43,589 nt of DNA. Origin: an uncultured bacterium. Its GTDB lineage: Bacteria; CAYUVA01. The stretch's first letter is position 1; each line of letters begins with the position of its first letter. The notes under the pieces are model-generated. The model searched no databases. It was not told the origin of the DNA and saw only the letters and a list, made by a program, of their open reading frames with translations. The DNA lies in the NCBI GenBank assembly GCA_964448115.1, contig CAYUVA010000040.1:1-43589 (forward strand), given 5' to 3'. The position numbers and the translations under genes were made by a program. Below are positions 1,783-40,357 of this stretch, piece by piece.

Positions 1783-3636
1783 CTATTCGATCGTCAAGTA
1801 GGGCCAGGGTAGGCTTTGGTTTCCCTGCTGGTCAGTTGCAATGACCTCAAGCAGAAACTGTCCGTAAGAGTTCTCTGCAAGCTCCCTAATATAGGTCTCC
1901 ATAGTATATATGCCATCGCCAGCGACGACATCTCCGAACATCCCGTCATCGCGTAGCAAGACCCCAGTCGGCGAACCGGCAAAATACAACTCAACGCTCG
2001 CAATGTCGGATAGCCCCTGCGCATCGGTTACGCCAATCCAGAGGGTCAAAAGTCCTTCACCGCCGGCTATGAGCTGCGTATCCCAATAGCCGCCAAACAG
2101 GATAACAGGGCGATCCGAAGACCTTGCCGAACAATTGCTAGATATATGCTGTCGATAGATGCTCTGCCAGTTCGGAGTATAGCAGGCATAAGAGATACCA
2201 TCAGCGGATGAATATTGGTTACCGCGCAGTATGTTCAAATATGGCCATAGCAGGCTCTCGTTGCCAGCATAGTCCCTCGCCACCAGCTCGAATGTATACC
2301 GGTTGGGTGCGATATCGCCGCCAACCTGGGCAACCACCAGTGAATAAACCCCATCGCCAGCCATCATATCGCCGCTCGTGCCATCGTCGTAAAGATAAAC
2401 GCCGGTAGGGTGCTTGAACCAGAGAAGCTCTACATTACCGATCCCGATATTGTCCAGAACATAAGCCAAGAGCACAAAATGCCCCCCGATCCCTGACCCA
2501 ATGGAGGTGTCCATATAGCCAGCGAGCCTTATTTCAGGCAGAATTGCATCCTGTATGCTCGACTCTCGGTTGGAGTAACCGCTCTCCCAGTAGCAGGCAT
2601 CGCGCGCCTTGACACGATAATAATAGCGCACGCTGTCATCGAGACCGCTGAAGGTGTGGCAGGTCCCTTCGATCCAGCCGCTGATCGAGGCTATCTCATT
2701 AAAGTTGATGTCGAGCGCACATTGCGCAAGGTACTGCCAGGCGCCGGAGCTAGACTCATCGGACCAGCAGACCTGGTTGGAGGTGCCTGCCGTGTATTCA
2801 GGCTCATCGAACAGGTAGGGCGCATTAGGGGGAGCTGTTGCCGTGCAGGTAACCGATGGCGTTGCGGTCGGGGTCGCTGCGCCTGTAGGCGTATCGGTTG
2901 GCGTGGAGGTGATTTGGGTTGGAGTAGCGGTATTGTTGGTGCCTGTGGGGGTAGATGTCGGCGCGGTAGGTGTTATGGTAGGCGTTGCGGTAGGGGTGCT
3001 CGGCGTTTGAGTAGCTGTTGCCGTGGGGGTAGGTCCCTGCACATTTGGTCCCTCAATCTCCACGCGAATAGTCCAGTCTCCAGAAACGCCGAAGTCATCG
3101 CAATAATGCCATTCCCAAGCCTTTTTGGTGTTCACCCACATGACATTGTTATGATAGGTTATTCCATCTCGGTCAGCGCCTAGAGCAGGCGGATAATCAA
3201 AGCGATGCTCAAGAACAATTACGAACCTGCCCTCGTTTATGGTGATGTTGTAGGACTGCATGTCAACATCGTTCCAGTTGTGCGAATAGAGGGTGTATGC
3301 CTCGGTTACGGCAAGGAGCGTTCCCGGCTCCGGCAGGTTGCTTCCTGCCTCGTAAATGCGAAAGTTGAATTCATTGCTGGTCTCGTAGGCTGAGCCGAGA
3401 AACACGCGGACCGTCTTTATATTTATCGGGTACTCGTAGCCTTGTGCCTCATATATCTGTCCGAAGTACTCATTTGCCACTGTGCCAGGATAAACAGTAA
3501 CCTCGCCGCCCTCGAAGGAGTCGTGTTGCAGCCACCTGGATCCGCAAAATGCCTGAACTGCGCTGAGCACAGATATAAGCAGAAGGACAGATGGCACTAT
3601 GAACAATCGAGTCAATCTTTCATTCATGAATCTCAT
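1783..3636 (-). CDS. Secreted modular protein: N-terminal beta domain, Pro/Thr linker, FN3-like domain, two tandem copies of the shared C-terminal GYxD/DDG-GD-GDG/WPYL domain
   Basis: Hydrophobic signal peptide; ~70 aa PT-rich linker; FN3-like W...L...YYYRVKARD segment; repeated C-terminal domain ending WPYLTIE. The true start could be the second Met (3627). Confidence 0.85.
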   Translation of the reverse strand: MRFMNERLTRLFIVPSVLLLISVLSAVQAFCGSRWLQHDSFEGGEVTVYPGTVANEYFGQIYEAQGYEYPINIKTVRVFLGSAYETSNEFNFRIYEAGSNLPEPGTLLAVTEAYTLYSHNWNDVDMQSYNITINEGRFVIVLEHRFDYPPALGADRDGITYHNNVMWVNTKKAWEWHYCDDFGVSGDWTIRVEIEGPNVQGPTPTATATQTPSTPTATPTITPTAPTSTPTGTNNTATPTQITSTPTDTPTGAATPTATPSVTCTATAPPNAPYLFDEPEYTAGTSNQVCWSDESSSGAWQYLAQCALDINFNEIASISGWIEGTCHTFSGLDDSVRYYYRVKARDACYWESGYSNRESSIQDAILPEIRLAGYMDTSIGSGIGGHFVLLAYVLDNIGIGNVELLWFKHPTGVYLYDDGTSGDMMAGDGVYSLVVAQVGGDIAPNRYTFELVARDYAGNESLLWPYLNILRGNQYSSADGISYACYTPNWQSIYRQHISSNCSARSSDRPVILFGGYWDTQLIAGGEGLLTLWIGVTDAQGLSDIASVELYFAGSPTGVLLRDDGMFGDVVAGDGIYTMETYIRELAENSYGQFLLEVIATDQQGNQSLPWPYLTIE

Positions 3637-3801
3637 ACGATAATAAGTATATCAAAGATGGCAGGTGATTTGCTAAAAGTAATATGCGAATTAATCATTT
3701 GCTTCCATTTGATCGATTCAATATTCCCAAAAAATGTGGATATTATTTTACGATGACATAAAGATTATCTTTAAATTTATATTTTATTATATCCAGTCAG
3801 G

Positions 3802-4158
3802 CTATTGTAATTCAATCTCCCCCTCTCCTACCGGCTCCCATGAAGTATGCAGGTACGCCTTGGGCGGAGAATCTAAAAAGGAGATGTAGATAGGCTTTTC
3901 ATTGCGCAGCATATCGAGAACATCGTAATACATGCTCACCGGGAGGTGCATCTTGATCTCCTCGATTTCATCCTTTCGGTTGCGGATAATGCTGTCAACC
4001 TTAGGCTCTACGCTGGGATCATCGAAACATAGACTTGCGATCTTCTTCTTATCTTCATTGTAAAGAAAGATGATCACTCGATGCTGCACGGCAGTTGTTG
4101 GTCCTCCCTGAAAGGAGATATTGTACTTACTGATCTCATGGGTCTTTAATCTTTTCAT
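3802..4158 (-). CDS. Hypothetical protein (118 aa, C-terminal DMLRNEKP...EPVGEGE)
   Basis: The ORF track gives 3802..4290, but GGAGG lies ~10 nt upstream of the ATG at 4158 (MKRLKT...), which is the more likely start. Confidence 0.7.
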   Translation of the reverse strand: MKRLKTHEISKYNISFQGGPTTAVQHRVIIFLYNEDKKKIASLCFDDPSVEPKVDSIIRNRKDEIEEIKMHLPVSMYYDVLDMLRNEKPIYISFLDSPPKAYLHTSWEPVGEGEIELQ

Positions 4159-4377: not shown

Positions 4378-6099
4378 ATGAAGACTAGCGAGAGGTTCGG
4401 AGAGTACCTGGTGCGCAAAGGCTTAGTCTCTCAGGACGAGCTGGACAAGGCGCTACGCATACATAAGGATCGAAACAAGCGTCTCGGTGAGACCCTAGTT
4501 GAACTGGGCATCCTGCATGAAAAAAGTTACCTGGAGATCCTCGGTGAGTATATTGGGATTCCGTTTATAACACTCAAGGATTTCCCACAGGATATACAGC
4601 CCCCGGTAGAGCTATCTCCCGAATTCATGCGCCAATACCGCATTTTTCCTCTGGAGCTTTCCAATGGAGACCTGAAGCTAGCAATGGTTGATCCCCTGGA
4701 TCTATATACAATCGATGATATCGAGACCGCTACTGGACTAACCGTCAAGCCGGTTCTCTGCCTGGAAAAGGAGCTGATGAGTGCCATAGAAAACTACGCC
4801 AGCGGCGGGGCATCACAGGTTGACAAGATAGTCGATGATATGACCGAAGAGGAGCTTTCTATATATACCCAGGATGTCATGGAAGACGAGGAGATGCTCA
4901 GGGATATGGCATCCGAGGCGCCGGTGATCAAGCTGGTAAACCTTATGATCCAGGAAGCTGTAGAAAGAGATGCCAGCGATATACACATCGAGCCGTTCGA
5001 GAATGCACTGAAGGTTCGATATCGAATCGATGGTATCCTGCATGATGTGGAGGCTCCGCCAAAGAAGATACAGGCTGCGGTCATCTCCCGCATCAAGTTG
5101 ATGGCACAGATGAACATCGCTGAACGGCGCCTACCCCAAGACGGTCGCATTATGACCCGGGCGGCTGGAAAGAAGATCGATATGAGAGTCTCAACCGTAC
5201 CAACGCTGCACGGAGAGAGCGTTGTAATGAGGATCCTTGACCAGTCAAGCTCGCTTCTAACCCTGCAACAGCTCGGGTTTGAGCCGGACCACCTGCAAAA
5301 GTTCCAGAACATAATAGTAATGCCTCATGGCATATTTCTGGTAACCGGTCCAACCGGCAGCGGTAAAACTACCACCCTTTATGCTGCGCTGGACAAGATA
5401 AATTCGCCAGAGAAGAAGATTATCACCATCGAGGAGCCGGTGGAATACCAATTGATGGGGGTCAATCAGATCCAGGTGCGAAACAAGATCGGTCTCACCT
5501 TTGCCAAGGGCTTACGCCATATAGTCCGTCAGGATCCCGATATCATCATGGTCGGCGAGATCCGTGACCTGGAGACAGCAGATATCGCCGTTCATGCAGC
5601 ACTAACCGGACACCTCGTCTTCTCTACGCTTCACACCAATGATGCCTGCGGCGCCATCACTCGACTTATGGATATGGGGATAGAGAATTACCTGGTTTCA
5701 TCCGTGCTGGTCGGCGTATTGGCTCAACGGCTGGTCAGGGTCCTTTGTCCACACTGTAAGGAGGCTATAAAACCGAGCCAAGAGGTGCTTTCGGAGCTGG
5801 AGCTGCACAATGATGAAAACGAAAAGATAGACCGTATCTACCAGGCGGTCGGCTGTGAGAAATGTAACCATACCGGATACAAAGGCAGGAAGGGCATTTT
5901 CGAGCTGCTGGTTCTGAACGATGAGATACATAAACTAATCATGGACAAGGCACCGGCTAACATCATAAAACGAAGAGCAAGAGAGCAGGGAATGCGCACC
6001 CTGCGCCAAGATGGATGGGCTAAGGTGAGACAAGGCATTACCACCATCGAGGAGGTCTTCAGGGTTACCCAAGAGGAAGAGACCATCGCCAAGATTTAA
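4378..6099 (+). CDS. gspE: Type II secretion ATPase GspE with N-terminal MshEN-like domain
   Basis: ASDIHIEP, ERRLPQDGR, Walker A GPTGSGKT, RQDPDIIMVGEIRD, TGHLVFSTLHTND, Cys4 CPHC/CEKC. Confidence 0.96.
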   Translation: MKTSERFGEYLVRKGLVSQDELDKALRIHKDRNKRLGETLVELGILHEKSYLEILGEYIGIPFITLKDFPQDIQPPVELSPEFMRQYRIFPLELSNGDLKLAMVDPLDLYTIDDIETATGLTVKPVLCLEKELMSAIENYASGGASQVDKIVDDMTEEELSIYTQDVMEDEEMLRDMASEAPVIKLVNLMIQEAVERDASDIHIEPFENALKVRYRIDGILHDVEAPPKKIQAAVISRIKLMAQMNIAERRLPQDGRIMTRAAGKKIDMRVSTVPTLHGESVVMRILDQSSSLLTLQQLGFEPDHLQKFQNIIVMPHGIFLVTGPTGSGKTTTLYAALDKINSPEKKIITIEEPVEYQLMGVNQIQVRNKIGLTFAKGLRHIVRQDPDIIMVGEIRDLETADIAVHAALTGHLVFSTLHTNDACGAITRLMDMGIENYLVSSVLVGVLAQRLVRVLCPHCKEAIKPSQEVLSELELHNDENEKIDRIYQAVGCEKCNHTGYKGRKGIFELLVLNDEIHKLIMDKAPANIIKRRAREQGMRTLRQDGWAKVRQGITTIEEVFRVTQEEETIAKI

Positions 6100-6127
6100 T
6101 GGAACTTACTGGCTCTAAGAGGTAATT

Positions 6128-7348
6128 ATGGCAGTATTCGAGTACCAGGCGAGCGACCCATCAGGAAATGTCATCAAGGGCGAGATGGAAGCAAAAGACC
6201 GCGCCGCGGTGATCAAGCGTCTGCAAAGCCAGCGCTTCTATCCCCTGAGAGTAAATCAGAAGGTGGAGAAAAAGGGGCTATCCACCGAGATCTCGCTCAA
6301 GGACATATTCTCCAGGATTACCAGCAAAGATGTGATGAACTTTACCCACCAGCTCGCCGCTTTAACCGATGCTGGCTTACCCCTTGACCGCAGCCTCCGC
6401 ATATTGGCTAACCTGGCTGAGAAGCCCCGATTAAAGGCGGTGCTGGAGGATATAGTCAGGAATGTCGAGGGTGGAAGCACCTTTGCTGATGCCCTGGCTC
6501 GCCATCCCAAGCTGTTCAATCGCCTTTATATAAATATGGTTCGCTCTGGCGAGGCTGGCGGAGTTCTGGAGAAGATCCTGGTTCGTCTTGCAGAGTTCAT
6601 GGAGAGCACCCAGGAGCTGAAATCCGAGGTGGTTTCCGCTCTGATTTACCCGGTCATCCTTGTCTTTGTAGGTGGCGCTGCAGTAGCGATGCTTATCACC
6701 TATGTTGTTCCTAAGTTTGCCAGGATCTTCGAGGATATGCACGCTGCCATTCCGCTCCCTACGCTTATACTTCTTGATTTGGCTAATTTCCTCAAGATGT
6801 ATTACTGGGCAATAATCTTGGGCATACTATTCTTTGCTGTCCTATTTCGCTATTACCTGCGCACCGAGAGCGGAAGGTATAACTTTGATGTATTGTCCTT
6901 GAAGCTCCCAATTATCAAGGATCTTATAACCAAGATGGAGGTCTCTCGTTTCTCCAGAACCCTGGGAACTTTATACCGAAACGGTGTGCCGTTGCTACAG
7001 GCTTTGTCCATAACAAAGGAAATCCTGGGCAACGAGGTTATAAAAAAATCGATAACAGAGGTCTATAGCGGCATCAAGGAAGGCTCCGGCATCGCGGAAC
7101 CGCTGGGCAATAGCGGTGTCTTTCCACCACTGTCCATCCACATGCTCGAAGTCGGCGAGGAGACCGGCAACCTCGAGGATATGCTGCTTAAGATCGCTGA
7201 TACCTACGAGAACGAGGTCAAGGTGGCGGTCAACAGGGCAGCACGACTACTGGAACCTATGATGATTATTATCATGGGAGTTGTGGTCGGATTTATAGTC
7301 GTATCCATGCTTTATGCCATATTCTCGGTGAACGATATACCTATGTAA
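6128..7348 (+). CDS. gspF: Type II secretion inner-membrane platform protein GspF
   Basis: AGLPL, GEAGGVL, ALIYP, VVPKF, GEETGNL, LLEP motifs; three hydrophobic segments; follows gspE. Confidence 0.95.
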   Translation: MAVFEYQASDPSGNVIKGEMEAKDRAAVIKRLQSQRFYPLRVNQKVEKKGLSTEISLKDIFSRITSKDVMNFTHQLAALTDAGLPLDRSLRILANLAEKPRLKAVLEDIVRNVEGGSTFADALARHPKLFNRLYINMVRSGEAGGVLEKILVRLAEFMESTQELKSEVVSALIYPVILVFVGGAAVAMLITYVVPKFARIFEDMHAAIPLPTLILLDLANFLKMYYWAIILGILFFAVLFRYYLRTESGRYNFDVLSLKLPIIKDLITKMEVSRFSRTLGTLYRNGVPLLQALSITKEILGNEVIKKSITEVYSGIKEGSGIAEPLGNSGVFPPLSIHMLEVGEETGNLEDMLLKIADTYENEVKVAVNRAARLLEPMMIIIMGVVVGFIVVSMLYAIFSVNDIPM

Positions 7349-7375
7349 GAACTTATTGAGTCATAAGGAGAATAG

Positions 7376-7786
7376 ATGATGTTGCTTCTAAAAATAATCA
7401 AACGTATAGGCGAAAGAAGAACAAATAACGATAGCGGTTTTACACTCATCGAACTGATCGTGGTCATGGTCATCCTGGGGCTGCTGGCAAGCATCGTTAT
7501 CCCCAAGTTCACCGGACGCACCGAGGAGGCGAGGAGAAAAACCGCTCGCACCCAGATATCGCAGTTGCAGACCGCCTGCGAGCTGTATCGGGTTGATAAC
7601 GGGCGCTATCCCAACTCGCTCGAGGAGCTTACTGCTGTCAACTCCGAGACTGGCGAAAGATACATGGACAAGATCCCCAAGGATCCTTGGGGCGAGGACT
7701 ATGTTTACGAGGTTACCGATGGCGGCAAATCACTGCGCATTACCTCCAGCGGTGGTGAGGGAGAGCCGATTAGCAACCTAGACTGA
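7376..7786 (+). CDS. gspG: Major pseudopilin GspG
   Basis: Class III signal G|FTLIELIVVMVILGLLASIVIP; YRVDNGRYP and IPKDPWGEDYVY motifs; AAGGAG RBS. Confidence 0.92.
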   Translation: MMLLLKIIKRIGERRTNNDSGFTLIELIVVMVILGLLASIVIPKFTGRTEEARRKTARTQISQLQTACELYRVDNGRYPNSLEELTAVNSETGERYMDKIPKDPWGEDYVYEVTDGGKSLRITSSGGEGEPISNLD

Positions 7787-7846
7787 GCAAACAAGATCAG
7801 GATAAACCTTCCAGAAATAGCGTTCACAATTTTATCGCCCAGTAAC

Positions 7847-8467
7847 ATGAGATCACCAGGGTTCATACAGGCTATAAGGAAAAGCGAGAATGGCTTCACC
7901 CTCATCGAGGTGATCCTGGTCATGGCTCTGCTGGGTATCAGCCTAAGCATCGTGCTCCCACGATTCATCGGCACTTTAGACAATATACGACTAAAGACCT
8001 CTACTAAGCGGGTCGCATCCTGCCTGCGCTATGCTAGAAGCAGGGCTATAGCGCTCAAGACCACGACCTCCATATCCTTCGGGCTTGAGGATGGTAGCAT
8101 CAAGGTCAAGGCGGATAATCCCCCAGTAAAAGTCCCCAGCGCAAAAGAAGATGATGACAATAATAAAAAGGATCTCCCCTTCATCGCGGAGAAGAGCCGG
8201 AGCAAAGGGGGATCGGTTGAGCTTTACGACTCCAAGCTGCCTGGCGAGGTGGAGATGCAAGCCTGGAGCGAGGAGCTTTCCGATGTTCTTCTCGAAGGAA
8301 CCGTTACCATCGAGTTTTATCCCAAGGGGAATAGCTCTGGGGGAACATTATTTCTGCTTTTGCAAAACGGTCACTACTTCGTGATCGAGGTCGATGCTGT
8401 TACCGGCAGGGTGTTGGTTACTGAGGAGTTTGCTGACTATATCCCTCGATACACAGAATATTATTAA
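7847..8467 (+). CDS. gspH: Minor pseudopilin GspH/FimT-like
   Basis: G|FTLIEVILVM prepilin motif; LRYARSRAI, IEFYPKG..SGG, VDAVTGRV; position after gspG. Confidence 0.85.
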   Translation: MRSPGFIQAIRKSENGFTLIEVILVMALLGISLSIVLPRFIGTLDNIRLKTSTKRVASCLRYARSRAIALKTTTSISFGLEDGSIKVKADNPPVKVPSAKEDDDNNKKDLPFIAEKSRSKGGSVELYDSKLPGEVEMQAWSEELSDVLLEGTVTIEFYPKGNSSGGTLFLLLQNGHYFVIEVDAVTGRVLVTEEFADYIPRYTEYY

Positions 8468-8477
8468 AAGTATTGAA

Positions 8478-8921
8478 ATGAGAGCAAAACAAACAGGTTT
8501 CACCCTTATCGAGGTTATCATCGCCATGTCGATCCTTGCCATCTCGATTACCTCTCTTATGGAGCTATTCACCATAAGCCTCAAGGGGGTTAGGGTAAGC
8601 CGGGAGACGACTTTTGCCTCCATACTTGCCAAGAGCAAGATGAGCGAGCTAATGCTGCAAAGAGAGGTCAAGCCGGGCGGTGAATCAGGCACCTTCGAGC
8701 AATTCGGGGGAATCTATGATTATGAGACCATGATAGAGGAGTATGAGCTTCCAAACCTGGTCAAGGAGGGCGCACTAGACTTCGATAGCGTATCTGATGC
8801 TCCGGTGGAAGAGGAGGATTTATATAAAACTTACAAGATTACCGTTGTGGTGAGCTGGGGAGGACGCAAGGTTACGCTCACAACCATAAGGGTGCAGTAC
8901 GAGAACCCGGAGGCGATGTGA
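8478..8921 (+). CDS. gspI: Minor pseudopilin GspI
   Basis: MRAKQTG|FTLIEVIIAM; C-terminal YKITVVVSW. Start reassigned to the ATG at 8478 (the track start at 8394 overlaps gspH). Confidence 0.82.
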   Translation: MRAKQTGFTLIEVIIAMSILAISITSLMELFTISLKGVRVSRETTFASILAKSKMSELMLQREVKPGGESGTFEQFGGIYDYETMIEEYELPNLVKEGALDFDSVSDAPVEEEDLYKTYKITVVVSWGGRKVTLTTIRVQYENPEAM

Positions 8922-9823
8922 TGAGCACTTGGCTGAAAAGAAGAAATCATAATATGAATGGCTTCACCTTGATCGAGTTGATCATCGCCTTTTCTATCGT
9001 CGCGCTTATATCGCTTGTTATCTTAAGCGGTCTTCAGGTGGGGAGCCGGGCATGGGAGGTCGGCGAGTCGCGCATCGAGCTGTCTCAGCGGGTGCGCATC
9101 ATCACCGAGATCGTCTCCACCGAGCTTCAGTCAGCCTTTCCCTACTACTTCAAGGACGAGGATTACAAGAAAAAGCTACAATTCTGCCTTGCCGAGGATC
9201 GGATCGATTTCGTGTCCAGCGCAGAAAGCCTGCTTGTCAAGGAGTGGGGCATGAGCATGGGCTTGAGGGAGGTCTCCATCTATGTTGAGGACTCGACCAC
9301 CTCTGACTATCAAGGATTGGTCATGAGGGAAGCGCCGCTGGGGAGCGAGCACCCTTTCGATCCCGATCGCGGACGAATATTCGAGCTTGACAGGTGGGTT
9401 ACAGAGGTATTCTTCGAGCTTATACCGATCTATAACAGCGAAACCGGCGAGATATTTAAGGCTGGTGATGTTGAATGGTGTTATCCAGAGGAGGAAGAGC
9501 TGATCGATCGCTCCTTTGTTTTCGACTTCGGATTGCCAGAGCAAGATGCGCGCAAGCTTCAGAAGATGTGGGGAGAGAAGCTACCTATGGCTGTAGAAAT
9601 GACCTTGACCTTTATCGATGAGACACAGAGCGATCCCGTGAAAATAACACTTCCACCGTTTTATTTTCCATTCTGGAATACAAGAGTTCTCGAATACCCT
9701 AAAGAAAAGGGTGAGGGAGAACAAGTAACCACTACCACCACTACCCAACCACAGGCTCCTTCCCGCCCCACTCGCGGGCGCCAAGGGGGGAGAAGCAAAG
9801 GGAAACTTCCTTTCAATAGATAG
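8921..9823 (+). CDS. gspJ: Minor pseudopilin GspJ-like
   Basis: G|FTLIELIIAF prepilin motif; LPMAVEMTL near the C-terminus; TGATG overlap with the gspI stop. Confidence 0.8.
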   Translation: MSTWLKRRNHNMNGFTLIELIIAFSIVALISLVILSGLQVGSRAWEVGESRIELSQRVRIITEIVSTELQSAFPYYFKDEDYKKKLQFCLAEDRIDFVSSAESLLVKEWGMSMGLREVSIYVEDSTTSDYQGLVMREAPLGSEHPFDPDRGRIFELDRWVTEVFFELIPIYNSETGEIFKAGDVEWCYPEEEELIDRSFVFDFGLPEQDARKLQKMWGEKLPMAVEMTLTFIDETQSDPVKITLPPFYFPFWNTRVLEYPKEKGEGEQVTTTTTTQPQAPSRPTRGRQGGRSKGKLPFNR

Positions 9824-9824
9824 G

Positions 9825-11006
9825 ATGATACAAAGAGATAAGAAATTAGTTCGCATATATTTTGCGCTTAAAAGCGTTGTCTCCTCGCACCGCGGGGTCG
9901 CTCTTCTAATGACCCTCTGGGTAGTGGTTCTTCTGGGGCTCGTCGCCTCGGAGTTCGCCTATACTATGCGAATGGAGCTGCGCATCACCTCGAACTACAA
10001 GGAGGAAGCCGAGGCATACTACCTGGCAATGGCTGGAGTGAACGCTGCTTTGGCAGAGATAATGGCAGTCTCCAAGGCGGTATATAAGGACAGCAGTGGA
10101 AAGGTCGCTTTTTTGGGACAGAGACAAGGGGTCATCGGAATGGGGGAGGATGCGGGAGCTGTATTGCCACCAGCGCCGAATCGGGAGAATATTTCACTCG
10201 GCAATGGAGCATTTGATTATGTAATTGAGGACGAGGATGGAAAGCTGGATCTCAACTGGCTCACCGAGGAGAGAAATATAGGGCATTTCAAAAAACTGCT
10301 CCGCGAATCAGGGATAACCGACATGGATACAATTAACACGATTACCGATTCAGCCTTGGATTGGCGTGATGATGAGAAGGGGCACAGGCTTAATGGCGCC
10401 GAGGATGAATGGTACATGAAAAACTACCAGGAGCAGGGCTTTACCGAGCCTTATCTCTGCAAGGACGGTCCTTTTGACACTGTTGAGGAGCTTCTGATGG
10501 TGCGGGGCATGACTCCGGAGATACTTTATGGCGGAAGGATGCCCGAGAAGCTGGCAGCCAAGCGCTCACTGTGGGAAAAGAAGCGCCAGGGAGAAGAAGC
10601 GCCTTCATACAAGGGGATCTATCCCTACCTGACGGTTTACAATACGAGCGGAAGGATAAATCTCTATACCTGTGATGACTTCATAATCAAGGTGCTTACC
10701 GCAACTGAGGATGACTACAACAGGCTGATCGAGCTTCGTAATAGCGGAGCGCTAAAGCGTAATATAGGTGGAATTTTCACTTCTATATCACAAGATTTCA
10801 CTATATTTGCGACCGGGTATCTAAGCGGTGGGCTTCCCCGTCGCACAATAAAAGCTGTTGTAACAAACAGGTTAGATCGCAGGAATAACAAGGATGCGGT
10901 CAAGTTCAGATACTGGCAAGACAATGCCAAGGAACCCAAGCAAGGAAAGGGTACTGATAATGTATATAAGCCAGACGAGTTTAGCCATACAACTACAGGA
11001 CGATGA
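9825..11006 (+). CDS. gspK: Minor pseudopilin GspK
   Basis: RG|VALLMTLW (no Glu at +5, typical of GspK); DEDGKLDLN, LDWRD, GAEDEWY, GPFDTVEELLMVRGM, GRINL. Confidence 0.9.
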   Translation: MIQRDKKLVRIYFALKSVVSSHRGVALLMTLWVVVLLGLVASEFAYTMRMELRITSNYKEEAEAYYLAMAGVNAALAEIMAVSKAVYKDSSGKVAFLGQRQGVIGMGEDAGAVLPPAPNRENISLGNGAFDYVIEDEDGKLDLNWLTEERNIGHFKKLLRESGITDMDTINTITDSALDWRDDEKGHRLNGAEDEWYMKNYQEQGFTEPYLCKDGPFDTVEELLMVRGMTPEILYGGRMPEKLAAKRSLWEKKRQGEEAPSYKGIYPYLTVYNTSGRINLYTCDDFIIKVLTATEDDYNRLIELRNSGALKRNIGGIFTSISQDFTIFATGYLSGGLPRRTIKAVVTNRLDRRNNKDAVKFRYWQDNAKEPKQGKGTDNVYKPDEFSHTTTGR

Positions 11007-12864
11007 GCTTCAGCTTCTTCTTTTAGGTAAGGGGCTAAAGGAGATGCAGGTTCTCGGGGCAAGGCGCCTTGAGTTAACCATGCCAAAGGAACCCTCATCC
11101 CAGGAGTACGAAGATACCTTGCGTTTGCACATACGGGAATTTGTAAGCAGCGCTAAAAAGAAGCCTGACCAGGTTGTATTGGGGCTTTCCAGGCGCTATG
11201 TACATTACAGGATCATCGAGATCCCAAAGGTGGCAGACGAGGAGATCGCCAATGTGCTTGAATTCGAGGCGCCAAGGCACTTCCCTTTCCCGGCAGAGGA
11301 AGCATACTACAGCCACCTGAAGCTCGATTCGAGGACAGCTAATATGCTGCGCATCCTCCTGGTTGCGGTAAAAAGAGGCTATCTAGACCCGTTGCTCAGA
11401 GCCTTGAAACAGTTAAACCTCTATCCTGGAATAGTAGATTTCTCCTCCCTGTCGCTGGTGAATGCATATTATCACCTGTACAACCAAAAGCATGATAAAT
11501 CAGTAGCTTTAGTCAACATTGACCGAGGCATTACTGATATAGCCATACTGGGCGGTCATGAGTTTGTATTCAGCAGAGCCATTCCTACTGACCAGTTGTG
11601 GCATAAACAATCGACCTCCAAGCCTGCCACAGGTGAGTTCTCTATCGATCCGGATGCTCTGGTTCAGGAGCTGAATACCATCTTCAGGGCAGCTAGATTG
11701 GATAAAGAGGAGTCAGTTGATGAGATAGTCCTGACCGGCATGTTCGCGGATGACAAAACCACCAAGGACAAGATTTTCGAGGCTATACGAATAAATACGG
11801 TCGGCAGAGCGACCAGCGAATTAGTAAAAGTGGAATCATCCGAGTACACAAGGCAGGTCGATGATTATGGATTCATTCCCGTTGGTTTGGCTTTAAGAGG
11901 CTTCCGACAACATCTGCTTAATATCAATCTCCTACCTCCCTCGCTAAGGATCACAAAGAAAAACTACAGCCTGATAGCTACCATCCTCCTATCCTCGCTT
12001 TTGGTTGCCTTGGCTGTTCTTCTCATAGTCGGTGCATTCTATAAACAAGGTCTTATATTAGGGTATTACGAAAAGGAGATCGCTAGGATCCTACCCAAGG
12101 TTAGGGAAGTTCAAGAACTAAGCGGACGATCAAGGGCACTGAATCAGGCAATTGACACCTTTGCCGGATTGCAGCAGAGCATAACCCCCCGCCTGGACAT
12201 CCTGGCTGCCTTGAGCGATATCATCCCCAAGCCGGTGTGGCTTAACGAGCTGCGGGTTGATGGGAACAAGCTGACCATCGTCGGCGAGGCTCAAGCACCG
12301 GAGACGCTGGTGGAGAAGCTCGAGGAACATCCATTGTTTCAGAAGGTGAAGATGGGAAGGGTGGAGAGAAGCAGGTTTACTATAGAGATGGAGGTTATCA
12401 ACGCTCGATATATTCCTTCACCTGAGACCTCCAAGCTGAAGAAGCCTCCCCAAAGCAAGATGTTATCTGATATTCCCCCGCCTGAACAGAAGGGATCTCC
12501 TAATGTGGATAGCTCAAGCGAGGATCAGGCTCCTGTCTCCCAACCGGAAGCATCGACCAGCCCAGTAGAGGCATCGCAGGTCCCGATGAGACCGCCCGAA
12601 GCACCATCGACTAGACCGATCGATGCCCAACAAGAACAAGCCAGCGAGGAACCTTATCCCGACTCTGAGGTTAGATCCAAACAAGAAGCTAGGGAAACTG
12701 GACAAAAAGATGCCACCAATCAAGAGGAGGCAAAGAGACAACAGGACCTGATAAACATATTGCGATCCTTTGCTGATAGGAAAAATCAGCAAAAGCAAGG
12801 GGAACAGGGTACCGAGGAAGGACCGAAGATATACGGCTTCGATGAGCAAGAACAGAGCGAATAG
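10960..12864 (+). CDS. GspL-like (PilM actin-like + TM + PilN-like) assembly platform protein with long low-complexity tail
   Basis: FEAPRHFPF, LLVAVK, IVLTG, VGLALRG, INLLP, then a TM helix, then VWLNELRV...GEA. Start set at the ATG at 10960 after an AGGAAAGG RBS-like sequence. Confidence 0.8.
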   Translation: MYISQTSLAIQLQDDELQLLLLGKGLKEMQVLGARRLELTMPKEPSSQEYEDTLRLHIREFVSSAKKKPDQVVLGLSRRYVHYRIIEIPKVADEEIANVLEFEAPRHFPFPAEEAYYSHLKLDSRTANMLRILLVAVKRGYLDPLLRALKQLNLYPGIVDFSSLSLVNAYYHLYNQKHDKSVALVNIDRGITDIAILGGHEFVFSRAIPTDQLWHKQSTSKPATGEFSIDPDALVQELNTIFRAARLDKEESVDEIVLTGMFADDKTTKDKIFEAIRINTVGRATSELVKVESSEYTRQVDDYGFIPVGLALRGFRQHLLNINLLPPSLRITKKNYSLIATILLSSLLVALAVLLIVGAFYKQGLILGYYEKEIARILPKVREVQELSGRSRALNQAIDTFAGLQQSITPRLDILAALSDIIPKPVWLNELRVDGNKLTIVGEAQAPETLVEKLEEHPLFQKVKMGRVERSRFTIEMEVINARYIPSPETSKLKKPPQSKMLSDIPPPEQKGSPNVDSSSEDQAPVSQPEASTSPVEASQVPMRPPEAPSTRPIDAQQEQASEEPYPDSEVRSKQEARETGQKDATNQEEAKRQQDLINILRSFADRKNQQKQGEQGTEEGPKIYGFDEQEQSE

Positions 12865-12876
12865 CTACGAAATGAT

Positions 12877-13491
12877 ATGAAGGAGTTGTTTGAAAAGCTA
12901 TCCGATAGGGATAAACGGATCATACTGATTGGAGCTGTTGCTGTTGGTCTCTATGTTCTCTATCAATTCGTAATCGTGGGGTTGCTTGATCTTTATCACC
13001 AGAGAGAGGCTCGCATAATGTCCCAAAGAAAGCTGCTAGATAAATACATACAGGCAGCTAACCGAGAGCAAGACCTTCACACCCGGGTAACAAAGCAGCA
13101 ATCGTTGAAAAAACAGATAGAAAGCCTGCTGCTTCCCAGCGATACACCGGCGCTGGCGGTTGCAGATCTGCAAAAGATCCTTCGTGAGATAGCCAAAAAA
13201 CAGCACCTTGATATCAAGAGTATCACGCCTAAAAATAGCAGGGATATAGGGGATCTCTTTACCGCCATTACCGTCGCTTTTCCACTTACCGGTACCATGA
13301 GTCAAATAAAAGAGTTCATTTATAAGATTGAGAATAACTCGTATTACATGGAGATTCCTAGCTTGAGGATACGAAGCGGAAACCCAAGAGAGAAATACAA
13401 GGATGTGGTTGTAGATCTTGAGGTTACCGCTTTTGTGGCAAATAAAACTAAAACAGAAAAAGAGGATAGAAACAAGGAGGGATCGAAATGA
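12877..13491 (+). CDS. GspM/PilO-like inner-membrane protein
   Basis: KLSDRDKRIILIG, then a TM helix, a coiled coil and a ferredoxin-like segment (GTMSQIKEFIYKIE); position after gspL. Confidence 0.8.
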   Translation: MKELFEKLSDRDKRIILIGAVAVGLYVLYQFVIVGLLDLYHQREARIMSQRKLLDKYIQAANREQDLHTRVTKQQSLKKQIESLLLPSDTPALAVADLQKILREIAKKQHLDIKSITPKNSRDIGDLFTAITVAFPLTGTMSQIKEFIYKIENNSYYMEIPSLRIRSGNPREKYKDVVVDLEVTAFVANKTKTEKEDRNKEGSK

Positions 13492-13543
13492 TCCCTTTTG
13501 GTAGCCTGGATAATTCCCCGATGACCATGGCAAGGATAACACC

Positions 13544-14380
13544 ATGTTAAATAAATATCTGCTCATAAACATCATCGTGTTGAGCATGGTTTGCTTTATA
13601 GGTTACAAGCTCTACTCTATCATGTCATTACCGGTCAACTTCGGCGATCTGGTCATGCCCTTGCAACAGCAAAAAGACCAGGCAAAGAGGGATTTACCCG
13701 TTCTCAAGGATAGACCACCTGTATTTACCCGTTATGCGAGCGTCAGCGATAAGAATCTATTTCGCCCCCAGCGCGAGGAATACAAGCCGCCGACCCCGAC
13801 CCCGGCTCCCACCGAGGCGCCGCAGAAAAGGAAGATTGAGCTTAAAGGATTGGAGTTGTACGGCGTGGTTATTGCCGGTCCCAGTAAGAGAGCGCTCATC
13901 TCAGAGCAGAGCATAGAAAAGGGTAAACCGCTGCCCTATAAGGAACAGGATAAGCTAGCTGGCTTCACCATCTCTCGTATTTTCAATGACAAGGTGATCC
14001 TCACCATGGAGGGGCAGGAGGATGTTACCTTGCTGCTCAGGGATAGGTCCAAGAGACGCTCCTACTCGTCGAAAGCACAACAGCCGCCTACGACTGCTCA
14101 CCCTCCGAGGCGATCCTTCCCGTCCAATATTAGGACCCGTGAGGATATGGCGGAATCTGCTCTCCCATTTTTGCTTCGCCAGGCTCACCAGCAGGCGATG
14201 GAACAAGGGAAGGAACAGGAACCGGCTGAGCCACCTCCGCTGCCACCGTTCCTTATGGGCTTGACACAACAGGCTGAGGAATACGAAGAAGCACGAGAAG
14301 GACCGGAAGATGAGAGCGAGGAGGAGTATAAAAAGAGAATGGAAGAGCTGCGTGATAAATATAAAAGGAGAAGAAGATAG
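13544..14380 (+). CDS. GspC-like protein (TM + HR domain, no PDZ, acidic/helical tail)
   Basis: N-terminal TM; KNLFRP; HR-like LELYGVVI...ALI...GFTISRIFNDKVIL; directly upstream of the secretin. Confidence 0.7.
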   Translation: MLNKYLLINIIVLSMVCFIGYKLYSIMSLPVNFGDLVMPLQQQKDQAKRDLPVLKDRPPVFTRYASVSDKNLFRPQREEYKPPTPTPAPTEAPQKRKIELKGLELYGVVIAGPSKRALISEQSIEKGKPLPYKEQDKLAGFTISRIFNDKVILTMEGQEDVTLLLRDRSKRRSYSSKAQQPPTTAHPPRRSFPSNIRTREDMAESALPFLLRQAHQQAMEQGKEQEPAEPPPLPPFLMGLTQQAEEYEEAREGPEDESEEEYKKRMEELRDKYKRRRR

Positions 14381-14461
14381 GGTGATAGGTTACCTGGAAA
14401 ATAAAACAATAAAAATAGAACAATTCATTCCCCACCAAGGAAAATCCCAGGAGATATATCG

Positions 14462-17170
14462 ATGAGGATGCATCAAGCCAAGAGCTTATCGATCGCCATT
14501 TTAATTATGCTTGTAATCATCGGTTGTACATCAGGGCACCGCTATGTAAAGGTCGCTGGTCATCAAGAGGCAGCAGATAATACGATAAAAAGCACACAAT
14601 ACAGGCTTCCCCAAGCTGTGGAATCTCAAAATGGAGAAGACCCGGCTTTACCCCAGGAGGTAACCGTAGCCGCTGCAACCTTTGGAAAGGACTACCAGAG
14701 CGTACAGGATATGTTTCGAGACAGAGCGGATTATACCACCCCGGTCGATGATGCGGATCTTAATGAAACACAGACATCCAAATCGACCGAAATAAGCCCA
14801 GATGAGACAGATCGTGTTACTCCTTCAGATGCAAAAGAAAAAACAGAGGCAGATGATGAACCCTCCAAGGAACCAGCCGAGTCAAAGCAGCCACCAAAGG
14901 CGATGCAACCAACGGTGAAATCCAGGAAACGAGAACCTAATGTCCCCAAGGGGAGCAAAGGGATCAAGTTTTCCAACATCCCGGTGAAGGATGTGATAGA
15001 GAAATTCAACGAGATTTTGGGTGAAGATTACCAGCTTTCCGATGAGGTGGATGCGCAAAGGCTCATAGAATGGGAGTATAAATCGAACAGGGAACTCGTT
15101 TTAGAGGACTATAAGAAGCTCTTCGAGAGGTTCCTTGAGGATAATAACTACCAGGTGCGCAGCGAGGAGGGGATAGGTAAAATATATTATGCATTTGCCC
15201 TCAATTTCGAGAATGCGGATCTTAGCCTTGTAATTCAGACACTTAGCGAGCTAATCGGCTTGGACTATATCCTGCATCCCGGCGTCGGTGCCGGCAAGAG
15301 GATAAACATGCAGACCTGGAACAAGAAGATCCTGACCAAGAAAGAGCTTACCGACCTTCTCTATACGTTGCTGGAGCTTAATAATGCCACCATGATAAAG
15401 TCCGGTGAATACTGGAAGATCATCCCCATGAGCGAGGTAAAGTCCCGCCCCTTGGATGTGCGCATCCCCCAACAGATCCTTGACGAATACGAGTTACAGC
15501 AAAAGCTGAGAGACTCTGAGCAACTGCCAGATAGCGATCAGATGGTAATGCAGGTTATTCCTTTGCAATATATATCGACTGCGCAGGCTACCCAGTTCAT
15601 TCGCCCATTGCTATCAAATAACTCTTCGGTGATATCGAGCAACGACACCAACCTGTTAATCATCATCGAGGTCGCCTCCAACCTGAACAAGATCCTTAAA
15701 GTGCTGGAGCTTCTAGATGTTGATCTTGGAGTAACCGACTTTGTGCTCATTCCCATCCAATATGCTGATGCATCTGATATCGCCAATGTGCTCAACCAGA
15801 TCTTCAGGGCACGAACCACGACGGTAACCATCCCTTCACGCACTACTTCAAGGACATCGAGGTATCGAAGCAGAAGGGCGCCTGCTACAACGACCACCAC
15901 GAGCGGCTCCGAGGTGATCATCATTCCGGATAAGCGTTCCAACTCGTTGATCATATTCGCCTCCAAGCGGGATATCGAATTTGCCAAGCAGATCATCTCC
16001 ATGCTCGATGTCGATATTTACGCCACGCGCAAGACATATATCTACTATTGCGAGAACGCCAAGGCAGAGGATTTGGCAAAGATCTTAAGCCAGGTCTATG
16101 GAAAAGGAGGTAGGGGAGAGGGACAAAAATCACCTGTCTTTCGTGGAAGGCAACCACAACCAGGAGCTAAACAAGGAGAGGCTGCTGGCGAAGAGGTGGA
16201 GGGCGAGATCACCATCGTTCCCGATGAAAGGACAAACTCACTGATAATTGTCGCCAGTCCCACAGATTACGACATCCTGCTTGGTACGCTTAAGAAGCTG
16301 GACATTCAATCCAAGCAAGTATTGCTCGACATACTATATGCGGAGATCAAGCTGGACAAATCCAACCAGTTCGGAGTTCGCTGGGAATTATTAAGCCAGG
16401 GCAAACTGACCGTTGGCAACACTACCTATTACTTTGATGATGTGATGAACCAGGACTTCAGCGCGGTGCCCAAGTACGGCGAGGTCGGCTCCGGCTTCAC
16501 GCTCAACCTGTTCGAGGCTTCCCGCTTCAGGGCTATCCTCAATACCATCTCGGCTGATAACAAGCTAAAGGTGCTTAGCAATCCATATCTTCTAGCCTCC
16601 AATAACACCGAGTCAAAGATAGAGATAGGAGACCAAGTGCCTATAATAGTGGGCGAGACTACTACCGGCTCCATAACCGTCCAACCAGGAACGAACCAAC
16701 CTAGCCAAACCTTTACCCAGAACGTGCAGTACAGGGATACTGGGATTATCCTGACCATCACGCCGCATATCAACGAGAACCGCTTCGTAACCCTGGAGAT
16801 ACAGCAGGAGATCTCCGAGGTAACCCAGGAGCAGTTCGGCGGCACCAGAAATCCTGCGATCCAAAAGCGTAATATCAATACTACCGTGGTGGTAAAGGAT
16901 GCCATGAGCCTTATCCTAGGAGGGCTTATCAGAACCAAGAAAAGCACCAGTAAATCAGGACTGCCCCTATTATCGGATATCCCGCTGCTCGGTCCCCTTT
17001 TCAGCAGCCTGACAAGGCGCAACGAGACCGTTGAGCTTCTGATGGTCATAACACCACGAGTCATCGGGGATCCGCAGGAGGCGATCATGGCTACCGATAT
17101 GATCTGGGACAATGCGATAAGTATAAAGAGATACTACAAGGATAACAGGGATAGATTCCTTCAACATTAA
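14462..17170 (+). CDS. gspD: Type II secretion secretin GspD, probable lipoprotein
   Basis: LNFENADL N0 domain; PDKRSNSLII and PDERTNSLII N-domains; LDIQSKQV, IGDQVPI, QYRDTGIILTITPHIN, LILGGLI, SGLPLLSDIPLLGPLF, ELLMVITPRVI; lipobox IIG|C. Confidence 0.95.
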   Translation: MRMHQAKSLSIAILIMLVIIGCTSGHRYVKVAGHQEAADNTIKSTQYRLPQAVESQNGEDPALPQEVTVAAATFGKDYQSVQDMFRDRADYTTPVDDADLNETQTSKSTEISPDETDRVTPSDAKEKTEADDEPSKEPAESKQPPKAMQPTVKSRKREPNVPKGSKGIKFSNIPVKDVIEKFNEILGEDYQLSDEVDAQRLIEWEYKSNRELVLEDYKKLFERFLEDNNYQVRSEEGIGKIYYAFALNFENADLSLVIQTLSELIGLDYILHPGVGAGKRINMQTWNKKILTKKELTDLLYTLLELNNATMIKSGEYWKIIPMSEVKSRPLDVRIPQQILDEYELQQKLRDSEQLPDSDQMVMQVIPLQYISTAQATQFIRPLLSNNSSVISSNDTNLLIIIEVASNLNKILKVLELLDVDLGVTDFVLIPIQYADASDIANVLNQIFRARTTTVTIPSRTTSRTSRYRSRRAPATTTTTSGSEVIIIPDKRSNSLIIFASKRDIEFAKQIISMLDVDIYATRKTYIYYCENAKAEDLAKILSQVYGKGGRGEGQKSPVFRGRQPQPGAKQGEAAGEEVEGEITIVPDERTNSLIIVASPTDYDILLGTLKKLDIQSKQVLLDILYAEIKLDKSNQFGVRWELLSQGKLTVGNTTYYFDDVMNQDFSAVPKYGEVGSGFTLNLFEASRFRAILNTISADNKLKVLSNPYLLASNNTESKIEIGDQVPIIVGETTTGSITVQPGTNQPSQTFTQNVQYRDTGIILTITPHINENRFVTLEIQQEISEVTQEQFGGTRNPAIQKRNINTTVVVKDAMSLILGGLIRTKKSTSKSGLPLLSDIPLLGPLFSSLTRRNETVELLMVITPRVIGDPQEAIMATDMIWDNAISIKRYYKDNRDRFLQH

Positions 17171-17194
17171 AAAACCAAAGGGAGGCGTGATCCC

Positions 17195-33573: not shown

Positions 33574-33587
33574 CGAATTACGCTTGG

Positions 33588-35407: not shown

Positions 35408-35465
35408 AAGGTGCTTTGCAGGTACACTCTACGAAAGCTTGACAGGGTATAGGATGGAAGTCCTG

Positions 35466-37669: not shown

Positions 37670-37705
37670 TTATTAGGCTTTCATCTGTGTTTATAGGAAC
37701 CATGC

Positions 37706-40357: not shown

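Follow-up and report, generated by a model that had tools for sequence, protein, structure and literature searches.

A C-terminal Ig-like domain on the large exported proteins of an uncultured bacterium and its predicted self-pairing

The window analyzed here, a 43,589-nucleotide stretch of DNA from an uncultured bacterium, carries four genes for exported proteins (P0001 to P0004) that close with copies of one and the same domain (Table 1). A profile built from the five copies located by a sequence-only reading matched every one of them (E 7e-49 to 8e-38), and the copies are 31–43% identical to the first. Alignment confirmed that the motifs P-x-I-x-x-[AG]-G-Y-[WM]-D-[TS] and W-P-x-L are common to the copies, with WPxL lying 3–4 residues from the C-terminal end in all four hosts. 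The copy in the 936-aa protein is the most divergent, as had been noticed before, with P--VDYDID in place of the D-x-x-G-N-x-S stretch. All four hosts begin with a signal peptide, read from the sequence as a basic and then hydrophobic N-terminus. That they differ in cargo was borne out by a Pfam search, which gave a weak match to a transglutaminase-like core in P0003 (20.4 bits, below the cut-off of 23) and no family in P0001 or P0002; in the same search of the four proteins, the domain itself belonged to no Pfam family.

Table 1. Genes, domain copies and neighboring operon in the window.
Feature	Position	Strand	Remarks
Gene, 617-aa exported P0001	1783..3636	-	Signal peptide, head, PT-rich linker, FN3-like region, domain tandem
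Terminal copy, P0001	1786..2115	-	Profile E 6.7e-46; ends WPYLTIE, then stop
38-residue inter-copy linker, P0001	2116..2229	-	Trp-bearing helix (..TPNWQSIYRQHI..)
Inner (first) copy, P0001	2230..2541	-	Profile E 2.0e-42; NF041940 34.8 bits at 2332-2394
T2SS operon (context only)	4378..18739	+	Pfam: GspE, F, G, pseudopilins, K, M
T2SS operon, further genes	within 4378..18739	+	L-like, 278-aa C-like, lipoprotein-type GspD, 514-aa Big_1 lipoprotein (17195 gene)
Gene, 941-aa exported P0002	19747..22572	+	Two PT-rich linkers; domain 22243-22569, profile E 2.8e-48
Gene, 936-aa exported P0003	28429..31239	-	Domain 28432-28734, profile E 7.8e-38, most divergent copy
Gene, 883-aa exported P0004	37706..40357	-	CarboxypepD_reg repeats; domain 37712-38032, profile E 7.4e-49

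The description of four dispersed proteins holds for the window and understates the genome. Run against the 3.98-Mb genome at E ≤ 1e-5, the five-copy profile found 190 domain copies in 155 ORFs, far beyond chance, and these carriers account for 11% of the genome's bases. In 137 of the 155 carriers no more than 10 residues separate the domain from the stop, and in 128 only 0–3 do; the domain is N-terminal or internal in 18, and 34 carriers hold two or three copies. Among the 144 carriers with an intact 5' end, 119 have a signal-peptide-like N-terminus compared to 329 of 1111 control ORFs, the calls being made with a crude heuristic that flags 30% of control ORFs too. A later TM segment (beyond residue 60) was absent in 142 of the 144. 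In outline, these counts uphold the claim that the domain is C-terminal on signal-peptide proteins. Lipobox-like signal peptides were seen in only 6 carriers. The share of exported ORFs that end in the domain climbs with protein size: 115 of the 279 signal-peptide-like, TM-less ORFs of at least 400 aa do so, and 46 of the 55 (84%) of at least 1000 aa.

The cargo of the carriers includes subtilases, FG-GAP proteins, propellers, a phosphatase, a lipase and a caspase-like peptidase, and a Pro/Thr/Ser-rich linker lies directly upstream of the domain in 81 of the 155. Most of the 33 tandem proteins have linkers of 22–53 aa with W-x3-[LY]-type motifs. The length of the tail after WP is fixed, 5–6 residues following it in 109 of 127 copies. 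Across the genome, the behavior of the domain is that of a lineage-specific tag placed at the end of exported proteins. The earlier proposal of a terminal sorting or docking tag stands to the extent that the domain is C-terminal, sits on exported proteins and recurs in a second phylum; the non-terminal and multi-copy carriers do not suit a strict export signal.

The second phylum is that of genome G022, where the family was found in 11 of 14 genomes, again at the C-terminus. A cargo-less protein, consisting of a signal peptide, a W-helix and the domain, scores higher than any other copy in this genome, where it is encoded at C4:99820-100404, and also in 10 of the 11 domain-bearing genomes of the other phylum. 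In the other phylum its gene neighbors are housekeeping genes (KhpA, FabF, Mfd and an HD-GYP protein); nothing in the neighborhood was common to that phylum and this genome, and no machinery candidate emerged from it. A conserved version that carries no cargo makes little sense as a pure export signal.

The P0004 copy was used for structure modeling, both as a monomer and as two copies. The monomer model is an Ig/FN3-like sandwich of ~105 residues (pLDDT 95.1, pTM 0.84). A Foldseek search of the PDB found no close solved relative (best E 9e-3), and a sequence profile search of the PDB reached E 0.11 at best. VIA-align returned nothing at Z ≥ 8; its best match, at Z 7.7, was the FN3 domain of chitinase A1 (rmsd 2.4 over 80 residues), and the neighbors at Z ~7 are FN3-like domains and carbohydrate-binding modules of glycosidases. 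Returns from the ESM Atlas were unnamed or generic Big_7, Big_13 and DUF4625 clusters only. The tandem unit was modeled as one compact body (pTM 0.88 over 255 residues) with a helix at its residues 128–137, in the linker (pLDDT 56–78), and a structure search with this model returned extended Ig tandems only, at TM ≤ 0.27. The same core occurs elsewhere as internal stalk repeats in giant proteins of other organisms. These foreign repeats span only profile positions ~17–98 or 50–98, and both ends that form the interface predicted below are missing from them.

The acidic loop was at first taken for the functional core of the domain, and this view did not survive the larger sample: the loop is kept in 77 of 135 terminal copies and missing in 58. 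Its appearance as an invariant functional site was a selection artefact of the alignments. Conservation peaks at both ends of the chain, not at the loop, the top conserved residues being W102, P103, Y10 and G9.

When two copies were modeled together, the score was 0.57, compared to 0.00 for the best of three controls. In the calibration of the tool, 20 of 30 proteins solved as one-chain pairs and 1 of 23 solved single attained the mark used for pairing, and up to ~19 in 100 monomeric proteins may attain it. Three runs share at least 96% of their contacts, with a partner pLDDT of at least 83. The predicted interface comprises residues 4–13, 15–18, 20, 23, 26–28, 80–87 and 102–109 of the P0004 copy, and lies on the N-terminal strand, which is conserved, and on the WPYL tail. 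Across 183 copies from this genome, the 35 interface positions carry 1.78 bits versus 1.27 for the other 74 (permutation P 0.003), a test that is not independent of the pairing model because the model used the same alignment, made by us. The higher conservation of the interface holds in the 79 loop-less copies too; these positions could also simply be the core of the fold. In this model, the tail is predicted to pair with itself. Because the domain is predicted to self-pair, its probable role is that of an assembly or docking tag peculiar to the lineage.

The interpretation we favor, and to which we give slightly less than an even chance, is that an Ig/FN3-like module carried by most large Sec-exported, non-membrane proteins acts as a homotypic pairing module. 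After export, one tail would bind another tail through the N-terminal strand (P-x-I-x-x-AGYWDT), the G-x-P-x-G loop and the free W-P-Y-L-x-[VI]-x-[ED] end. Carriers would be dimerized in this way, or docked onto other tail-bearing proteins, the candidates being either the small set of lipoproteins that bear the tail or the minimal protein without cargo, which is conserved. The pairing would thereby keep the exoproteome assembled in complexes, either on the cell surface or within a matrix. In tandem proteins, the same pair would form within one chain. The fixed tail length after WP, the compact tandem, the cargo-less version and the non-terminal carriers all fit a pairing module, such freedom of position being usual for domains that bind. 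We infer docking or retention as the purpose of the tail; the small number of lipobox-like carriers weighs against docking, as does the fact that the anchor partners are candidates alone.

The window also contains a T2SS operon, and the domain had been linked to it by proximity. The genome encodes six secretins, and 8 carrier genes lie within 20 kb of them versus 7.8 expected at random (P = 0.53), so we dismiss proximity as evidence. With one carrier per 25.7 kb in the genome, a 43.6-kb window that holds four departs only mildly from expectation (P ~0.02). The domain was absent from the 65 loci whose GspE is most closely related (≤53% identity; Nitrospirota, Planctomycetota, Omnitrophota and others) and from four whole genomes of that set, and the 17195-type Big_1 lipoprotein had no homologue in the 65 loci. 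A check on the co-occurrence of the domain with this GspD subtype and the 17195 gene had also been suggested. The operon with GspD and the Big_1 lipoprotein is present in 12 of 12 domain-bearing genomes examined, the Big_1 gene following GspD in 11 of 11 such genomes of the other phylum, but it is also present in 2 of 3 domain-less genomes of that phylum (G055 and G056). In the metagenome locus L176, GspD and Big_1 lie in the same order, and its 5.2 kb contain no domain copy. Since domain-less genomes have the operon too, it tracks the clade and not the domain, and the co-occurrence is confounded by ancestry. The proposed T2SS link thus finds no support in these data.

These results bear on the possibility that the tail is an export or sorting signal read, as a T9SS CTD is, by an outer-membrane translocon, which would be one of the six secretin systems, a T2SS, or else an unknown machine. 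Such a signal would account for an extreme C-terminal position kept in two phyla and for a tail on 46 of the 55 largest exported proteins, and the operon in every domain-bearing genome examined would suit it as well. Both lineages are without T9SS CTDs and SprA, which among the genomes sampled were found in 18 of 41 and in 4 of 4 CTD-rich ones, respectively. The T2SS is the default route for folded periplasmic proteins, and since searches for sortase and rhombosortase came up empty and exosortase gave a sub-threshold match only, it would be the default route here. The mutual exclusion of domain and T9SS is, however, consistent but not significant, because CTDs are missing in 23 of the 41 sampled genomes; T9SS tails are absent too in three domain-less genomes of the G022 phylum. 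We consider an export signal unlikely, as carriers are not enriched near secretins, the operon persists where the domain is lacking, the genomes with the closest GspE have no copy, and neither the non-terminal and multi-copy carriers nor the conserved cargo-less version is what a signal of this kind would predict.

Two further explanations take the fold as their starting point. A ligand-binding module similar to SLH or CBM modules, directed at a polymer from the environment or at the glycan of the bacterium's own envelope and possibly acting through Ca2+ in the loop, agrees with a beta-sandwich placed after PT-rich linkers, as in many CBMs, with the match of the D-D-G-x-x-G-D-x-x-A-G-D-G loop to NF041940, and with the carbohydrate-binding modules among the structural neighbors; tandem copies would raise avidity. 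We regard it as quite improbable, since more than two-fifths of the terminal copies (58 of 135) lack the loop, structural matches below Z 8 are generic, the cargo is too varied for one substrate, and the most conserved residues are at the chain ends. Alternatively, the tail could be a mere Ig-like end-cap that confers stability, spacing or protease resistance and was spread by domain shuffling, with no shared role in sorting or assembly. The generic fold, with its low best scores, and the recurrence of the same core in stalk repeats elsewhere would be natural for such a cap. A neutral cap, however, is not expected on 84% of the largest exported proteins, nor is it expected to end a fixed 3–4 residues after WPYL, to be terminal in a second phylum or to persist as a cargo-less orthologue, and we give this explanation little credence.

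In bacteria without a T9SS, sortase or exosortase, the surface organization of large exoproteomes is poorly understood, and we know of no recognizable tag on T2SS cargo in general. Here a single domain marks a tenth or so of a candidate-phylum genome and most of its largest exported proteins (11% and 84%), and it recurs in a second phylum. If the self-pairing is true, the domain would be a simple, portable protein-assembly module, and its two short terminal motifs would provide a testable handle on surface organization in uncultured lineages. If the self-pairing is wrong, the family, whose size, position, fold and phyletic range are established, is still a clean marker of the exported proteome in these lineages, and a full-length family model that complements the 37-position NF041940 would be justified.

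NF041940, the choice-of-anchor X model, has a curated cut-off of 25 bits, and the likeness to it noted earlier is real but partial: P0001 scores 49.7 bits from its two copies, and the other three stay below the cut-off (P0002 21.1, P0003 23.5, P0004 22.8). The loop L-x-D-D-G-x-x-G-D-x-x-A-G-D-G-x-Y fits the first 20–25 positions of the model, whereas the model spans only a loop of the domain; it detected 59 sites in the genome at E ≤ 1e-3, most of them above the cut-off, compared to the 190 copies detected by the dedicated profile. In other genomes, choice-of-anchor X is low-copy (1–4 matches) and internal. At least one of these proteins, G028:C21, terminates in a TIGR04183 tail, and the tails of two others look T9SS-like by eye. 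By definition, 'choice-of-anchor' domains are not themselves the anchor (10.1101/2023.03.06.531300). In this genome, no recognized anchor (LPXTG, PEP-CTERM or T9SS tail) was found after the domain, which mostly runs up to the stop. In the collection of papers searched, none named choice-of-anchor X or NF041940.

The T9SS CTD (Por_Secre_tail, TIGR04183 and PF18962; Bacteroidota and related phyla) is likewise a terminal beta-sandwich of ~70–100 residues, a paralogue repeated on tens to hundreds of signal-peptide proteins with unrelated cargo, and the same arrangement is found here. Copy numbers are also comparable, with up to >100 matches per sampled genome versus ~155 proteins here. TIGR04183 and PF18962 gave no match at E ≤ 1 on the four window proteins, and CTD matches in the whole genome numbered 0. 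SprA (TIGR04189) likewise had 0 matches in this genome (94% complete) and 0 in G022. T9SS CTDs are single, strictly terminal and cleaved, in contrast to the carriers here with two or three copies or with non-terminal ones.

To our knowledge, GlyGly-CTERM is the only well-studied link of a C-terminal tag to the T2SS. This tag, paired with rhombosortase, belongs to T2SS-dependent surface proteins such as VesB of Vibrio cholerae (PMC6219818). The likeness lies in a C-terminal tag common to several exported proteins; the GlyGly-CTERM tag, however, starts with a short Gly/Ser motif and continues into a hydrophobic helix and basic residues, in contrast to a folded 105-residue domain on carriers that nearly all lack a TM segment. 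Rhombosortase (TIGR03902) and sortase (PF04203) had 0 matches in the genome, the sortase search being positive in 3 Gram-positive control genomes, and exosortase (TIGR02602, EpsH) had one match only, which scored 22.9 bits where the cut-off is 105.55. Secreted proteases of Gram-negative bacteria also have beta-sandwich ends, such as PPC (PF04151) and PKD-type domains, and the Pfam search did not match PPC to the tail. PPC occurs only on peptidases and is removed on maturation, in contrast to the cargo of every kind seen here.

Dockerins of cellulosomes resemble the tail as small, mostly C-terminal modules, sometimes N-terminal or internal, that are joined by flexible linkers to many enzymes and serve in assembly, and both have Asp-rich loops. 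Comparison with CTD and dockerin HMMs had been recommended, and neither kind matches the tail: the sole match to Dockerin_1 (PF00404), at 13.4 bits (cut-off 22.9), covers residues 58–74 of P0004, outside it. Dockerins have a small, helical, Ca-binding fold and attach to a separate cohesin, whereas the tail is a beta-sandwich with predicted self-pairing, for which no cohesin-like scaffold was identified. A bolder form of the pairing interpretation, which we hold to be doubtful, is a homotypic docking code in which >150 exported proteins would sit on tail-bearing anchors, these being the lipoproteins among the carriers or the minimal cargo-less protein. It would replace T9SS-type attachment in two T9SS-less candidate phyla, may be coupled to export via the lipoprotein-secretin T2SS, and would amount to a cellulosome-like exoproteome that works without a separate cohesin.

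All four ORFs of 617, 941, 936 and 883 aa in the window start basic and then hydrophobic, and a related stretch of ~105 residues closes each of them, with two copies in the 617-aa protein. Alignment of the five copies, which are 31–43% identical to the first one, confirmed the coordinates and motifs of the sequence-only reading, which had proposed a shared sorting or docking tag. The start motif P-x-I-x-x-[AG]-G-Y-[WM]-D-[TS] is common to all five, and W-P-x-L stands 3–4 residues before the stop. No Pfam family was found on the tail of these proteins. The likeness to choice-of-anchor X, pointed out in the same reading, proved right, as NCBIfam NF041940 (choice-of-anchor X, 37 positions) matches the central acidic loop of the tail, at 49.7 bits in the two-copy protein and 21–23.5 bits in the other three (cut-off 25). 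An ORF with a weak DUF1565 beta-helix match runs off the contig end and may be the head of a fifth window carrier.

A profile built from the five window copies was run against all six-frame ORFs of the genome (86 contigs, 3.98 Mb, 94% complete; the window is all of contig C40). The proposed C-terminal tag on secreted proteins held up at this scale: 155 ORFs carried 190 copies at E ≤ 1e-5 (159 ORFs with a broader 45-sequence profile), the last copy lying within 10 residues of the stop in 137 carriers and 0–3 residues from it in 128. One copy was present in 121 carriers, two in 33 and three in 1. By a crude signal-peptide heuristic considering ATG starts only, 119 of the 144 carriers with an intact 5' end scored as exported, compared with 329 of 1111 control ORFs; of the 25 misses, many have a hydrophobic N-terminus behind a probable non-ATG start. 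No later TM segment was seen in 142 of the 144. The domain-ending share of signal-peptide-like, TM-less ORFs grew with protein length, from 115/279 at 400 aa or more through 94/161 (at least 600 aa) and 70/103 (at least 800 aa) to 46/55 (at least 1000 aa). Carriers make up 11.0% of genome bases, with one carrier gene per 25.7 kb. The copies are old and diverse, with identity to the nearest paralogue at a median of 44% and a maximum of 71%.

The cargo was scanned in the four window proteins and 41 further carriers out of the 155. Enzymes among it include subtilases, a purple acid phosphatase, a GDSL lipase, a caspase-like peptidase and GH31; other families are FG-GAP and PQQ-type propellers, beta-helices, a prenyltransferase-like toroid, and FN3 and PKD modules. 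Many scanned carriers have cargo without a family. Directly upstream of the domain, 81 of 155 carriers have a Pro/Thr/Ser-rich linker. Long linkers of Pro and Thr are widespread, and the table lists three window proteins with them.

Coordinates of the window features and of the loci discussed in other contigs and genomes
Feature	Contig	Position	Strand	Remark
Protein with long Pro/Thr linker	C40 (window)	1783-3636		
T2SS operon	C40 (window)	4378-18739	+	
GspD	C40 (window)	14462-17170	+	Lipobox (..LVIIGC), then low-complexity ~245-residue extension ahead of N0
514-aa lipoprotein after GspD	C40 (window)	17195-18739	+	Three Big_1 domains, PT-rich tail; long Pro/Thr linker
Protein with long Pro/Thr linker	C40 (window)	19747-22572		
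Modelled copy (883-aa protein)	C40 (window)	37706-38035		
ORF open at contig end	C40 (window)	42301-43587	+	Weak DUF1565 match
Minimal protein (L067/L189)	G000:C4	99820-100404		Best-scoring copy of the genome
GH31 enzyme (L049)	G000:C4	101031-103145		Domain N-terminal, behind signal peptide
FGE-sulfatase-domain protein (L052)	G000:C31	17701-19035		Domain N-terminal, behind signal peptide
NF041940 match	G028:C21	46256-46318		In one 1011-aa frame with the next entry
TIGR04183 tail	G028:C21	45746-45988		
T9SS-tail match	G053:C274	962-1201		Low contig coordinates
T9SS-tail match	G053:C433	5043-5285		Low contig coordinates

The source genome is the sole member of its phylum in the compared set, and the 40 other sampled genomes are related to it at the domain level only. 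Full-length copies were present in one of these 40 (G022, of another phylum, with 24 matches), and six others gave weak partial matches to the loop. Within the phylum of G022, 11 of 14 genomes had 4–50 matches, and G055, G056 and G057 had none; of 20 ORFs examined in G022 itself, 15 have their end no more than 5 residues past the domain. A set of 1.84 billion representative proteins yielded 1920 matches at E ≤ 1e-3, 742 at E ≤ 1e-10 and 156 at E ≤ 1e-30. Among the 124 best representatives encoded outside the source genome, the last copy ended within 10 residues of the terminus in 90, and the remainder mostly had PKD/Big-type domains after the copy or many partial internal repeats. The family is a large, ancient and lineage-restricted terminal Ig-like module on exported proteins.

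The AlphaFold2 monomer, computed with a 45-row alignment of diverse copies, is a seven-strand sandwich (pLDDT 95.1, pTM 0.84), and the modelled fold is a generic Ig/FN3. Foldseek against the PDB gave a best match of E 9e-3, and VIA-align gave no structure at Z ≥ 8, the best (Z 7.7, rmsd 2.4 over 80 residues) being the FN3 domain of chitinase A1. A profile search of the PDB found no solved chain related by sequence (best E 0.11). The end of the domain is stereotyped, with W-P-Y-L-x-[VI]-x-[ED] followed by the stop; exactly 5–6 residues lie beyond WP in 109 of 127 copies, and 92 of 137 finish on E, D, Q or N. The acidic loop was considered as an invariant site and rejected as a selection artefact of best-scorer alignments: D-x-G...D...D is kept in 77 of 135 terminal, 14 of 28 inner tandem and 13 of 20 internal copies, the others having a short loop, and copies with and without the loop fall into different similarity groups. 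Tandem copies are joined by 22–53 residues with a recurring Trp-bearing helix. The tandem unit was modelled as one compact body (255 residues, pLDDT 90.6, pTM 0.88), in which this helix had lower confidence than the rest.

Three runs of a two-copy model scored 0.57, 0.47 and 0.58 (median 0.57), with 0.00 for the best of three unrelated-protein controls; in the calibration of the tool, this mark is reached by 20 of 30 solved one-chain pairs and 1 of 23 solved single chains. The runs share at least 96% of contacts, with partner pLDDT of at least 83. The predicted interface is symmetric (residues 4–13, 15–18, 20, 23, 26–28, 80–87 and 102–109) and would be formed by the N-terminal strand, the G-x-P-x-G loop and the WPYL tail. 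Across 183 genome copies, conservation was 1.78 bits at the 35 interface positions compared with 1.27 at the other 74 (permutation P 0.003), a comparison that is not independent of the model because the model was built on our own alignment. The interface takes 12 of the 25 most conserved positions, the top residues are W102, P103, Y10 and G9, and the excess is also seen in 79 loop-less copies. The pairing scores express the confidence of a model, and conservation at these positions can also reflect the fold core. Internal repeats of the same core in giant proteins elsewhere cover profile positions ~17–98 or 50–98, with both ends missing. We predict from these models that tails pair homotypically through their family-specific ends.

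A minimal protein of ~170–260 aa consists of a signal peptide, the Trp-helix and one domain, without cargo. Its copy is also the best-scoring one in 10 of the 11 domain-bearing genomes of G022's phylum, where its neighbours are housekeeping genes (KhpA, FabF, Mfd). Among 5.8 billion proteins it has only 12 relatives at E ≤ 1e-5, the sole label being 'hypothetical protein'. This protein may serve as a core partner, a cap or an anchor adaptor.

The window operon encodes a complete T2SS, with GspE, F, G, three pseudopilins, K, a PilM/PilN-type L, M, a 278-aa C-like protein and GspD. With six secretin genes (two on C1, one each on C6, C14 and C15, and the window GspD), the ~4-Mb genome devotes unusually much to outer-membrane channels of T2SS, T4P or related kinds. 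Proximity had been the ground for linking the tail to the T2SS, and this link found no support. Carrier genes within 20 kb of secretins numbered 8, where random placement gives 7.8 ± 2.6 (P 0.53); four carriers within a 43.6-kb window has P ~0.02. The closest GspE relatives reach 53% identity at most and come from Nitrospirota, Planctomycetota, Omnitrophota and Desulfobacterota; neither their 65 loci (1.06 Mb) nor four of the whole genomes had a domain copy. In G022, an orthologue of the lipoprotein GspD (40% identity) is likewise succeeded by a Big_1 lipoprotein, at 38% identity, and this pair is kept in 13 genomes of its phylum and one metagenome contig. The suggested co-occurrence of domain and pair was seen in all 11 domain-bearing genomes of that phylum, but the pair is also in G055 and G056. 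Since these two have no domain, the operon is a clade trait wider than the domain family. By elimination, a T2SS remains the default outer-membrane route for carriers; none of these results shows the tail to be its signal.

We tentatively favor the tail as a pairing or docking module, a reading we hold at somewhat short of even confidence. Pairing of tails would dimerize carriers or dock them on tail-bearing partners, and carriers so joined may organize the exoproteome at the surface or in a matrix. Four facts agree more readily with pairing or docking than with an export signal alone: the domain occurs in tandem, an orthologue without cargo exists, N-terminal or internal positions are tolerated (for example before the GH31 barrel and the FGE-sulfatase domain), and the free C-terminal end is fixed. 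We regard a tail that serves for export or sorting as unlikely. A ligand-binding module appears more doubtful still, and a plain structural cap is, in our judgment, equally improbable.

Among known sorting systems, the T9SS tail (TIGR04183) matches 18 of 41 sampled genomes, with up to >100 matches each, and has none in the source genome or G022. SprA is present in all 4 CTD-rich genomes searched; the two domain-bearing genomes tested gave no match. T9SS tails are absent from 12 of 14 genomes of G022's phylum; the two with matches are 69% and 78% complete bins. G053, the 69%-complete bin (520 contigs), is the only genome of that phylum with several T9SS tails, and those listed among its 10 matches all lie at low contig coordinates. 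The matches in the two bins are possibly contamination. Model searches of the source genome found no sortase and no rhombosortase, and a single sub-threshold exosortase match (22.9 bits).

NF041940 sites number 59 in the source genome, 8 in G022 and 1–4 in eleven other genomes, where the motif is internal. In one of these (G028) it shares a frame with a T9SS tail, and two more of ten NF041940 ORFs end in T9SS-like tails as read by eye. Among the papers searched, none names 'choice-of-anchor X' or NF041940. One study (10.1101/2023.03.06.531300) describes choice-of-anchor domains as parts of surface proteins distinct from the anchor. The G028-type proteins show this pattern, a domain and then a separate anchor, whereas nothing follows the domain in the source genome. 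The domain, which at full length has no Pfam family, belongs with paralogous C-terminal tags on exported proteins, a known kind. Its novelty lies in a concrete, testable lead on mechanism, the predicted self-pairing through two short terminal motifs.
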